64,000 nucleotides of DNA from Convolutriloba macropyga (Eukaryota). Position numbers: made by a program. The stretch covers positions 61,628,001 through 61,692,000 of the forward strand of contig NC_134471.1 of assembly GCF_964194025.1 (NCBI RefSeq), given 5' to 3'. Below, one piece after another: positions 12,801 through 15,800 of this stretch (the first letter of the stretch is position 1; each line of letters begins with the position of its first letter).

Positions 12801-15800
12801 GAACGCTATTTCATGTCGTCTGTGTTAATTCAATAGACACAATTAGTGAGATCCTGCATTACGGCAGTCAACCGACGAATTTTTCAGCAGAGTAGAATGA
12901 ATGAAAACCTTATGTTCGAGGTGGAAAGTTTCCCGAAGATTCACTTGGTTGCAGTTTAACCTCGATATACAAAGCAAAAATGGAATCCTGGTATTTGTAG
13001 TGGAATCCGAAGGCCTATTCTTCACGCATTAAAGCTGGCGAATTTGATGTCTTTTTAACCTGAGCACGTATTTTGCATCGTTTCATTTCTTTCTAGGCCA
13101 TGTTATCATCAGGATTTCTTATTGTGCTTAAAATTTCAACGTTTTAGATGACGAAAAGAGTTTTATGATTTGAAAATGACAACGAATTATAATTTTTAAA
13201 CCATTTTTTCAGATGGAATGCAGTCAATGGAGACCAAAGCTTTGAACCCGGGCGTCTCCGTCGAGCTTGCGACTCTTCTGGAATTCATTCAAACTAGAAA
13301 ACTTTCAGAACTTGTTCATGATGCTCTAACTATAGTGGCTAATCGCCTGTCGGCGAACGTTCCTGAAAGGTTTGCAACTGTGCTGAAATCACCCTATTTT
13401 ATATCGTTTGTCTTATCGACTATCGATTTGCAGTTCCTGGTGGCCCATGATGCCACATTTGCGGAGAAATTTTATGGTTTACAAAAAGTTTCGAGCAATG
13501 GTATTTTATCAAAAACACGCGTGCTGTTGGCTTATTTAGTTTTCGAGCGTATTGTTCCATTAATAAGCGATTGGCTACAGAACGAAAACTCCCAGCTTTT
13601 AATGTCACGAATCAGTGATCATTTAAATTTTGACTTCAAATTTTATTTACTCTATCTCAAATCTTCAGTAGTTGTAGCAAATTCTCTTTTTGCCCTCACA
13701 TATTTATTAGAGTCATCGAATTATCCATCGCTAAATTTGTTTCTCAGTCGCTTTTTCTTGATTACAAGTATCCAAAATCAGAACCATTATCTGAGAAATT
13801 CAAATAAATTTCGGACCGTTTTCTCTGTAGCTCACTCGACGTCTAAAGTAATTCTAAAACTTCATACAGTTATTTCCTTTTTCATTCAGTTTCGAGATTT
13901 CTGGTCGGCTCAAAAGGCGATTGAAAATGAACAGAAAGATGTTACAGCTGAACGAATTCCACCTCTTCCAATTAAAGAAGATGAGATAAAAAGAAGTGAA
14001 ATTTCGTGCAACTCTTGTGGGAAAACTGGTGGAAATATCATCAACCCAGTGGCCTCTGAATTATGTGGTCACGTGTTCTGTTTAACATGTGTGAAAAATT
14101 ACTTGATCAGGTTTAGCAAATGTCCGAAATGTGCTTTAGGTTGTAACGTTAAGAACTTGGTGAAACTTATCGACTTGTAAAGTGCTATTAGAAACTTAGT
14201 ATTTATTTGGTGCTCATTTTGTATTTTAGTCAAAAGCAATAAAATAAATCATCTGCTTCTAGTTTTTGCGAACTTTGCAATTCAGTTCACATAATGTTCA
14301 TCGAAGGATACTCAGCATTGAAATTCTGAAGTCTTTCTAATAGCCGCCCTCATCTTCTCAGCCGGCTATTATAGCGCTCCTTTTTTTTACAATTCAAAGA
14401 ATTTGAATTGTATTGGGGCGCTGTCTTTTAAGATTTGTTCACACATTTTCATGATTTTTGAAGCCAAAGTGGAGTAGTGATTTTGGTCACAACGAGACGG
14501 GAAATGGAGCGAAAAAGCGAGCGGTTTTGCGGCGTGACTTTTTTTTGCTCTAATTTTAAAGTAGAGGGAGAAAACGGTGTTCGAACAAAAATTCGGTTTC
14601 TCGGTAGTGGTTTTTTGTTCACATGCGGCAATTTCACTCTGATTTTTGCTGTTTTTTCAATTTTTTGGATCGGATTTTTTTCTAAATGGTTTTCCCAATC
14701 CATTTACAGCTCATTCTAGGCCTAGGTTTTTGTTTGAATTGAGTTTTCATTTCTCGCTAGTGGGTTTTTTTGTTCACATGCGGCACTTTGATTTTGGTCT
14801 TGTTTTTTTCTCATTTTTTGTTCTGATTTTTTTAAAAAATGGTTTACTCAATTCATCCATAGTCTGTTCTAGGTCTAGTTTTTCTGTTTAGTCAATGAAA
14901 ATTCTTTGAATTGTACGTCAGGACTTGTCCTGCTATGTTTTTTACTTCGTCGAATAAAAAAATGTTTCGCTTTAACTCATTTTGCCGCTTTTTCAACATT
15001 TTGCGTGATATCTTTTTGACTTCTCTAGGCTAGTTTCTCTCTTCTCTCATTCCGCTAAAAGTGAGTTTGAACATCAGTTGCTCAGCAAAGCAATTCAAAT
15101 TGAACAGAGTCAGTATAAAAAATCGAAGTCAGAAGTAGAAACGGGATAAAGCCCAATTTTAGATGCCCGCTATTTGAACGTCGTTCCTATAAGTCTTAGT
15201 TACCATCTCTAACGCTTATTGGTATTGATAGTAGCCCCTGTAGCCTCTCTCTAAGAAACAGAAGTACGTTATGTTCAACTACGAAATGCCATCAAAATAA
15301 ATCAGACTTAGAAAATGTTTTTGTACAAAAATCTTTTTTTTCAATATCTTCTATTCTTTCAATCCCAATCATGCTTATTGGATTCAACGGCGGCTATTTT
15401 CTGGCAATCTGCCGGGTATGTTTTCATTTGAACTGCACGAAAGGTTTTCATTTGAACTCCACGAAAGGTTTTTGGGTTTATGTTATTTAGTTTGTTCTTA
15501 ATGTAAGAATGTTCCCAAACATCTTCCATTTGGTTTTGAGTAGCTCTGCCTCTAATTTAAATAATGATTTTTATGCGTCAATATGTGGGAATTAATATGC
15601 TAAAACGTACTAATGAAAAATGGCAGTAGTTATATACCAGCCTCTAGTTTTTCCGGAAAGTACTGACTTTTTTTAAACCTTAGAGGGATAAATGAGGCAA
15701 CCTCTGGAAAGTTCCTTTAAGTGTAAATCCCACCCTTAAAACTTCGTACACCAATCTGCAATTTTTATTTTACTGAAATGGTCTATGGAAAAAAAGAGAA

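Follow-up and report, generated by a model that had tools for sequence, protein, structure and literature searches.

How does a protein built like Pex12, a subunit of the peroxisomal ubiquitin-ligase complex, come to carry a complete C3HC4 RING finger, and does the extra zinc site change what the protein does? The gene that raises this question lies in a 64,000-nucleotide stretch of the Convolutriloba macropyga genome (GCF_964194025.1, contig NC_134471.1, 61,628,001..61,692,000, forward strand), which is the whole of the DNA that was analysed and is called the window below. The gene occupies positions 13218..14180 of the window on the plus strand, as do all of its features given here, and it consists of a single exon of 963 nucleotides that encodes 320 amino acids followed by a TAA stop codon. 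A one-zinc, five-cysteine RING is the structural hallmark of Pex12. It also underlies the model, set out in passages of Feng et al. 2022 (PMC9279156) and of PMC9788354, that the Pex12 RING cannot bind a ubiquitin-conjugating enzyme (E2) and only activates Pex10. The reading that we consider probable is that the product of this gene, the window protein, is a Pex12 in which the second zinc site has been rebuilt in place and which has kept its role as a non-catalytic partner of Pex10. Zinc binding, the direction of change, the pairing with Pex10 and the lack of E2 binding are the parts of this reading that we infer from sequence.

A C3HC4 expression applied to the translation picks out the pattern C264-x2-C267-x15-C283-x-H285-x2-C288-x2-C291-x10-C302-x2-C305 at nucleotides 14007..14132, and the codons confirm all eight ligands (TGC for C264, CAC for H285, and TGT for C267, C283, C288, C291, C302 and C305). 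The RING coordinates and residue numbering (residues 264-305) given in the initial annotation of this locus are exact, and its premise that Pex12 has five cysteines and binds one zinc agrees with passages of Feng et al. 2022 (PMC9279156). The spacings of 2, 15, 1, 2, 2, 10 and 2 residues fit the cross-brace rule, by which, as described in part of PMC8601054, one zinc sits between ligands 1-2 and 5-6 and a second between ligands 3-4 and 7-8. The nine cysteines of the protein all fall within residues 264-309, and the Pfam model zf-C3HC4 matches with 22.3 bits against a cut-off of 21. The ligand pattern is beyond chance.

The same eight ligands are invariant in three related proteins, designated P0003, P0004 and P0126, at an overall identity of only 33-40%. 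Indeed, P0003 and P0004 are identical to each other at just 11 of the 42 RING-core residues, and eight of these are the ligands. Because no part of the RING is better conserved than the ligands within this group of four proteins, hereafter the clade, a working second zinc site can be argued for. An alignment of the window protein with 18 of its matches (A1) places C283, H285 and C305 in the columns where Pex12 has S, Y or F, and T. Thus, C283-G284-H285 (ligands 3 and 4, 14064..14072) replaces the S-G-Y/F of Pex12, and C305 (ligand 8, 14130..14132) replaces the Thr or Ser that ends CP[IV]T, such that the window protein reads C-P-K-C305 where Pex12 has C-P-[IV]-T. The three ligands that Pex12 lacks (3, 4 and 8) all belong to the second zinc site, which is formed by ligands 3, 4, 7 and 8. 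Relative to Pex12, the ligand 2-3 loop is also extended by 2-3 residues. The rebuilt ligands 3, 4 and 8 make a normal two-zinc cross-brace the most likely fold.

Relatives were sought with HMMER (phmmer) in a library of 1.84 billion (1.84e9) representative proteins at a threshold of E<=1e-3. There are 124 matches to the window protein, which comprise the protein itself, P0003 (40% identity, 6.8e-58), P0004 (38% identity, 1.6e-41) and then a long series that begins at 2.1e-14. From P0005 (2.1e-14) onward, most alignments cover most of the length of the protein. A protein search with a profile of the clade added one relative, P0126, and word-indexed protein searches with the whole protein and with the RING region returned nothing beyond the protein itself. 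The combined set of 126 proteins includes nine with a complete C3HC4 pattern, namely the window protein twice, P0003, P0004, P0126 and four ordinary RING proteins that have no Pex2_Pex12 domain. The remaining 117 carry the Pex12 pattern in its degenerate form; a regular expression identified 109 of them, and the other 8 were judged by eye to be variants of it. Pfam was applied to eight library matches and the remainder were classed by RING motif. No Pex-domain protein with a complete RING is present outside the clade among the 124 library matches.

The N-terminal membrane-embedded domain, Pex2_Pex12 (PF04757), spans residues 29-231 (13302..13910; E 1.2e-7, 32.1 bits against a cut-off of 25.1), includes the family motifs ATFAEKFYGLQK and FIQFRDFW, and is also found by Pfam in P0003 and P0004. 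This Pfam model is common to Pex2, Pex10 and Pex12 and is therefore undecisive between them. More telling is a profile of 32 degenerate-type matches, none of them clade members, which finds the solved Thermothelomyces Peroxin-12 (7t92_B) across the membrane domain (1.7e-64), finds the yeast Pex12 RING (7t9x_A) at 1.9e-12, matches Peroxin-10 in the RING only, and has no Pex2 chain among the best 60 of its 135 PDB matches. Likewise, no Pex2 chain is present among the listed rows, in most cases the best 60, of the PDB searches made with the protein or with profiles. Comparison by hhalign of a three-sequence clade profile (A2) with the Pex12-type profile gives a probability of 99.9% and an E value of 8.2e-35 over 305 collinear columns, from the N-terminus to the tail. 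The membrane domain by itself also finds Pex12-type proteins (P0019 with 35.3 bits and P0005 with 33.6 bits).

Three Pex12-specific marks are present in the window protein, these being an FYGL motif, a proline connector and an L-x-K-L-I tail. The proline-rich connector, I247-P-P-L-P251 (13956..13970), lies between the membrane domain and the RING and aligns with the IPPPPP of Pex12-type proteins, with P248 nearly invariant. A Pex12 connector with conserved Pro residues is described in passages of Feng et al. 2022 (PMC9279156). The C-terminal tail, N313..L320 (NLVKLIDL, 14154..14177), lines up with L[IV][RK]L[YF] at the end of Pex12. At the level of sequence, these comparisons show that the window protein belongs to the Pex12 family and not to Pex2 or Pex10. 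Because of the profile matches, the hhalign result and the membrane-domain-only search, the N-terminal domain is considered Pex12-type, as the initial annotation had held, and the connector, the RING flanks and the tail are likewise Pex12-like. None of the tests made groups the protein with Pex10 or Pex2, which is the outcome that would have spoken against that earlier proposal.

How unusual the complete ligand set is among relatives was assessed with 115 family members, of which 113 could be parsed; the database copy of the window protein (P0002), the four non-Pex RING proteins and six vertebrate-like matches were excluded. A survey of this kind had been proposed beforehand, and it finds the complete C3HC4 set to be rare, with four representatives among the 113 parsed Pex12-family RINGs (the window protein, P0003, P0004 and P0126), all in one clade. 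At ligand 3, the family has S in 89 proteins, T in 17, A in 2 and C in 5. The corresponding counts are Y 71, F 22, H 9 and others 11 at ligand 4, and T 88, S 11, C 4 and others 10 at ligand 8, where the others comprise nine V or I, put down to mis-registered CC motifs, and one K. Cys at ligand 8 is confined to the four proteins of the clade. Single ligands of the second site do occur elsewhere: P0081 has Cys at ligand 3, and five degenerate proteins have His at ligand 4.

The degenerate Pex12 proteins that carry one of these two ligands are P0081, P0088, P0095, P0101, P0104 and P0106. In addition, a 55-amino acid fragment, P0110, has a tail (CPKT....CN.KNL.K.I) that closely resembles that of the window protein. 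The single-ligand proteins and P0110 may represent intermediate stages in the assembly of the complete site. In a literature search whose coverage did not extend to subscription journals and supplementary tables, no report of a complete RING in Pex12 came up, and there is no mention of one in the passages on peroxins, zinc or nematodes of PMC8172628, PMC4690255 and PMC3837297.

Phylogenetic trees were built from 95 rows, with the same exclusions as in the ligand survey and without rows shorter than 270 or longer than 460 residues. In the full-length tree, the four full-RING proteins cluster together, with a Shimodaira-Hasegawa-like approximate likelihood ratio test (SH-aLRT) value of 100 and a stem of 2.32 changes per column. 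Trees of the membrane domain only, from which the RING columns were omitted, recover the same clade with an SH-aLRT value of 100; in a careful search the support is 100/99 and the stem is 1.81 changes per column. On the membrane-domain tree, the Cys at ligand 3 and the Cys at ligand 8 each require one change, and the His at ligand 4 requires four. These sequence-based trees show that the full RING arose once, in a single ancestor of the clade. The rows closest to the clade, both with weak support, are P0019 and P0088, the latter having His at ligand 4.

The direction of this change can be judged by placing the root on a group of 13 fungal rows. Two groups of rows obtained fungal labels via the PDB, by way of P0047 as a match of 7t92_B (4.4e-68) and P0012 as a match of the yeast Pex12 RING (1.5e-20, C-terminal extension included). 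With this root, the clade is nested among degenerate Pex12 proteins at a depth of 13 nodes, inside a set of 39 rows (97/89). The deep nesting under the fungal root, the substitutions in homologous columns and the animal source of the protein favour regain of the second zinc site over its retention.

What a rebuilt RING might do depends on the places that contact an E2. According to passages of Feng et al. 2022 (PMC9279156) and of the review PMC9788354, the Pex2 RING monoubiquitylates the receptor as it emerges from the pore, the Pex10 RING polyubiquitylates, and the Pex12 RING is inactive alone and activates Pex10 through an RNF4-like dimer. Passages of the former also identify L288 and the linchpin R324 of Pex10 as E2-contact residues whose mutation abolished or lowered activity, and report that L398, near the C-terminus of yeast Pex12, contacts ubiquitin. 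By standard RING spacing, Pex10 L288 would correspond to the second residue after ligand 1 (ligand 1 + 2) and R324 to the residue after ligand 8 (ligand 8 + 1).

In the window protein, these two places are taken by S266 (14013..14015, from the codons and the family column counts) and A306 (14133..14135, from the codons and the alignment of relatives). S266 is the only Ser at ligand 1 + 2 among the 113 family RINGs, 110 of which have L, I or V there. The other clade members, P0003, P0004 and P0126, have V or L at this place and all three have Lys at the linchpin place. The first ligand pair accordingly reads CNSC in the window protein, CNVC or CSLC in its clade relatives, and CP[LIV]C in Pex12. 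Most family RINGs have Pro as the second residue of this pair, as judged by eye, and the clade members do not. Because S266 and A306 occupy both E2-contact places, the window protein looks like a two-zinc but E2-blind partner, and these residues speak against an autonomous ubiquitin ligase (E3) in C. macropyga.

The tail points to a retained partnership. Alignment A2 shows K316-L317-I318 unchanged in all three of its sequences, P0126 has KLI at its end too, and the C-terminus of the solved yeast Pex12 RING chain reads ..GIRKLI, such that L317 would be the equivalent of yeast Pex12 L398. Because this invariant K-L-I tail aligns with the ubiquitin-contact region, the pairing role with the Pex10 RING is probably kept in the clade.

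Probably, then, the protein serves as Pex12 in the peroxisomal ubiquitin-ligase and retrotranslocation complex that also contains Pex2 and Pex10, in an animal lineage that evolves fast. The second zinc site would have been rebuilt in place in one ancestor of the clade, by three substitutions in which Ser became Cys283, Tyr became His285 and Thr became Cys305, accompanied by a lengthening of the ligand 2-3 loop by 2-3 residues. The RING would now fold as a normal cross-brace with two zinc ions, and the membrane domain, the proline connector and the hydrophobic C-terminal tail would have been kept from the Pex12 design. The protein would remain a partner without catalytic activity, pairing with the Pex10 RING and aiding the polyubiquitylation of import receptors. 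The extra zinc might stabilise the domain without making it a new E2-binding ligase, at least in C. macropyga.

Several observations weigh against this account, and some of them bear on the identity of the protein. Its separation from Pex2 and Pex10 depends on the absence of these families from the match list and on transitive profile evidence. Clade-only profiles reach no chain of the fungal complex outside the RING in the PDB, where profile A2 finds RNF4 (9.6e-14) and Peroxin-10 (RING only, 0.0011) and matches nothing except RINGs; the membrane domain alone gives a single chance match there (E 0.46), and a four-sequence membrane-domain profile (A4) finds no PDB chain. A language-model Atlas search scores Pex2-type, Peroxin-12 and Pex10-like clusters equally (0.97). 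With such mixed neighbours, a Pfam N-terminal model common to all three families, and a 320-amino acid length and complete C3HC4 pattern that resemble Pex2, which is of similar length and has a complete RING, the protein might be taken for a divergent Pex2 or Pex10. We regard this as very improbable, given the lack of full-RING Pex-domain proteins among the 124 library matches outside the clade, the hhalign agreement with the Pex12-type profile, and the FYGL motif, connector and tail. Other observations concern the history of the RING. The RING-only tree (117 rows, 58 columns) resolves little, with 6 of 114 branches starred, and places unrelated RINGs near the clade; the best unrelated RING (P0115) has 24 of 55 identities versus 24 of 53 for the best Pex12-type RING. 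Recombination or gene conversion might have put the canonical RING of a different gene, be it Pex10, Pex2 or some unrelated ligase, in place of the RING core. The core is equally like the best unrelated RINGs, including P0112 with 21 of 56 identities, and many Pex12 RINGs, its ligand 2-3 loop is longer than that of Pex12, and the RING-only tree mixes the two kinds. However, the highest scores for the RING and tail all go to Pex12-type proteins (P0024 with 42.4 bits, P0110 with 39.9 and P0014 with 38.3), ahead of P0115 (35.6 bits, the best unrelated RING in the library) and P0112 (34.6 bits), even though unrelated RINGs are assumed to be far commoner in the library. The window RING also has residues outside the ligands in common with degenerate Pex12 proteins, namely INPVAS (P0042), G-x-VFC and KCPK....CN.KNL.K.I (P0110). 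Furthermore, no Pex10 or Pex2 is among the library matches at the search threshold, and the solved Peroxin-10 reaches just 21.7 bits. With a Pex12-like connector on one side and a Pex12-like tail on the other, a swap would need two in-frame junctions within about 50 residues. Rebuilding in place is thus favoured because the new ligands stand at homologous positions and the connector and tail are Pex12-like. A swap appears improbable to us; it keeps some weight because the RING-only tree is so poorly resolved and because unrelated RINGs score nearly as high as Pex12-type ones. Between the regain and the domain swap that the initial annotation had offered, it is regain that the homologous columns and the fungal-rooted nesting favour, and the swap is the less likely of the two. 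The annotation's further suggestions, a changed sharing of E3 work and compensation for a lost partner, find no support in these sequence comparisons.

A further reading holds that the complete RING is ancestral, such that this lineage or an ancient paralogue kept the second site and other Pex12 proteins lost it once. The tree is unrooted, the clade is one side of a branch, and the root could lie on its long stem. On the other hand, the source is an animal and fungal Pex12 is degenerate, as are rows whose features suggest plant and other animal Pex12. A root on the stem would also require an ancient duplicate to have been lost everywhere else, and the fungal root nests the clade within three starred enclosing branches, which leaves an ancestral RING quite improbable. 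The very long stem (2.32 and 1.81 changes per column) and the weak sister relations (72/31) nevertheless count among the points against our account; the exact placement of the clade is unsure because of this stem and could be a long-branch effect. The last such point is the hydrophobic ligand 1 + 2 together with the Lys at the linchpin place in three of the four clade members, a combination more in keeping with E2 binding gained in the lineage than with a role that is purely structural. The Pex12 RING of this lineage might now be a working E2-binding ligase, either as the sole Pex12 or as an extra paralogue beside a conventional one, that redistributes the work within the complex and could compensate for weakness in Pex10 or Pex2. 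The complete canonical ligand set and spacing are in keeping with this idea, as is the best solved match being the active dimeric ligase RNF4. The long stem suggests changed constraint, and an intronless gene among neighbours that have introns would fit an old retrocopy. We nonetheless find a working ligase doubtful, since the window protein itself has S266 and A306 and no second Pex12-like locus lies within the 64-kilobase window. The non-catalytic partner RINGs of BARD1, BMI1 and MDMX also hold two zincs. It is similarly unlikely that a normally inert Pex12 RING has reverted to an RNF4-like, E2-binding RING that acts as a second or replacement catalytic centre and relieves a weakened Pex10 or Pex2. 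If such a reversion did occur, it would be a rare documented rebuilding of a lost metal site by three coordinated substitutions.

Comparison with solved systems helps to define what is and is not typical of Pex12 in this protein. Like Pex12 (7T92 chain B, 7T9X), it has a Pex2_Pex12 membrane domain, a proline connector, a hydrophobic C-terminal tail, the first zinc site (ligands 1, 2, 5 and 6) with ligand 7, and a G-x-VFC core. It differs in adding C283, H285 and C305 where Pex12 has Ser/Thr, Tyr/Phe and Thr/Ser, in its longer ligand 2-3 loop, in having CNSC for CP[LIV]C, and in belonging to a very fast-evolving lineage. With Pex10 (7T92 chain C) it has in common a complete C-terminal C3HC4 RING of the two-zinc type on a Pex2_Pex12-type membrane protein, and the RINGs match weakly (21.7 bits). 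However, there is no match to Pex10 outside the RING, and the window protein has Ala for the linchpin Arg and Ser at the loop-1 place. Pex2 (7T92) has the Pfam N-terminal family in common with the window protein, but no Pex2-like protein is present among the 124 library matches of the latter.

The best solved match to the RING is RNF4 (4AP4, 2XEU), at 9.6e-14 with the clade profile and 23.8 bits with the single RING, and the pattern ..ECGHVFC..C.....K....CP.C is common to both. Passages of Feng et al. 2022 (PMC9279156) describe the Pex10-Pex12 RING pair as resembling RNF4-type dimers. RNF4 differs in being soluble and having the linchpin Arg, whereas the window protein is membrane-anchored and has Ala. 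A working analogy only is offered by BARD1, BMI1 and MDMX, whose two-zinc RINGs do not bind an E2 and instead activate a partner. BMI1 appears as a weak generic RING match in the PDB, and no sequence kinship is claimed for any of the three.

A natural Pex12 with a restored second site would provide a ready test of the model in which Pex12 is E2-blind. It opens the question of how a second zinc affects folding, stability, pairing with Pex10 and E2 binding. A related question is whether activity differs among the four variants, one of which lacks the usual E2-contact marks and three of which have them. The clade could also serve as a clean example for the regain of a lost metal site, with partial intermediates visible in other Pex12 proteins.

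The gene model itself is simple. An alternative start of the open reading frame (ORF) is M4 (nucleotide 13227), which is where the 317-amino acid database copy P0002 begins. An extra upstream exon was considered and is ruled out; P0003, P0004 and P0126 begin at the same Met, so that no spliced model is needed. An AATAAA motif located 58 nucleotides past the stop codon (14238..14243) is a likely polyadenylation signal.

Immediately upstream is an exon of signal-peptidase S26 type (12445..12735, plus strand; Peptidase_S26, E 2.7e-11), which ends about 480 nucleotides before the Pex12 gene. An intron of this S26-type gene apparently runs from GTAAGT near 12218 to TTTTAG near 12444. There is also a weak S24-like match (E 0.0019) at 2154..2411 (plus strand). 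Tandem repeats of 1.1 to 1.5 kilobases with 95-97% identity are located at 8771..11432, 14364..15425, 18962..21286 and 59003..61205. A copy of the repeat unit 9925-10990 with 80% identity directly follows the Pex12 gene (14364-15425), and thus related repeats flank the peptidase and Pex12 genes.

Farther downstream, an exon encoding the P-loop of a small GTPase is present at 47394..47666 (plus strand; Pfam Roc 1.6e-5, Ras 7.7e-4), and more exons of this gene are probably located at about 48340 and at 55721. Such exons would imply introns of several kilobases, in contrast to the intronless Pex12 gene. A tandem duplication at 54686..58964 (99.8% identical, period about 1.7 kilobases, about 2.5 copies) repeats a 150-amino acid ORF that resembles a late small-GTPase exon (55721..56170 and 57438..57887). 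This duplication could be real or an assembly artefact.

Searches of the 64-kilobase window gave no Rfam match, no transfer RNA with ARAGORN and no array with TRF (Tandem Repeats Finder) at a score of 200. A run of 152 N at 33531..33682 represents an assembly gap or a mask. Two long ORFs (334 and 161 amino acids) at 38106..40340 (plus strand), which have no Pfam match, are probably exons of an uncharacterised gene. A long terminal repeat (LTR) retroelement of the BEL/Pao group, a metazoan subclass of retroelements according to part of PMC3118150, extends over 22832..30370 (plus strand), in keeping with the animal source of the DNA. It includes DUF1759, an aspartyl protease, RVT_1, a Pao peptidase A17, an integrase (rve) and DUF5641, with several frame breaks, and its gag part is tandemly duplicated (22832-24279 versus 24281-25727, 98.4% identical).

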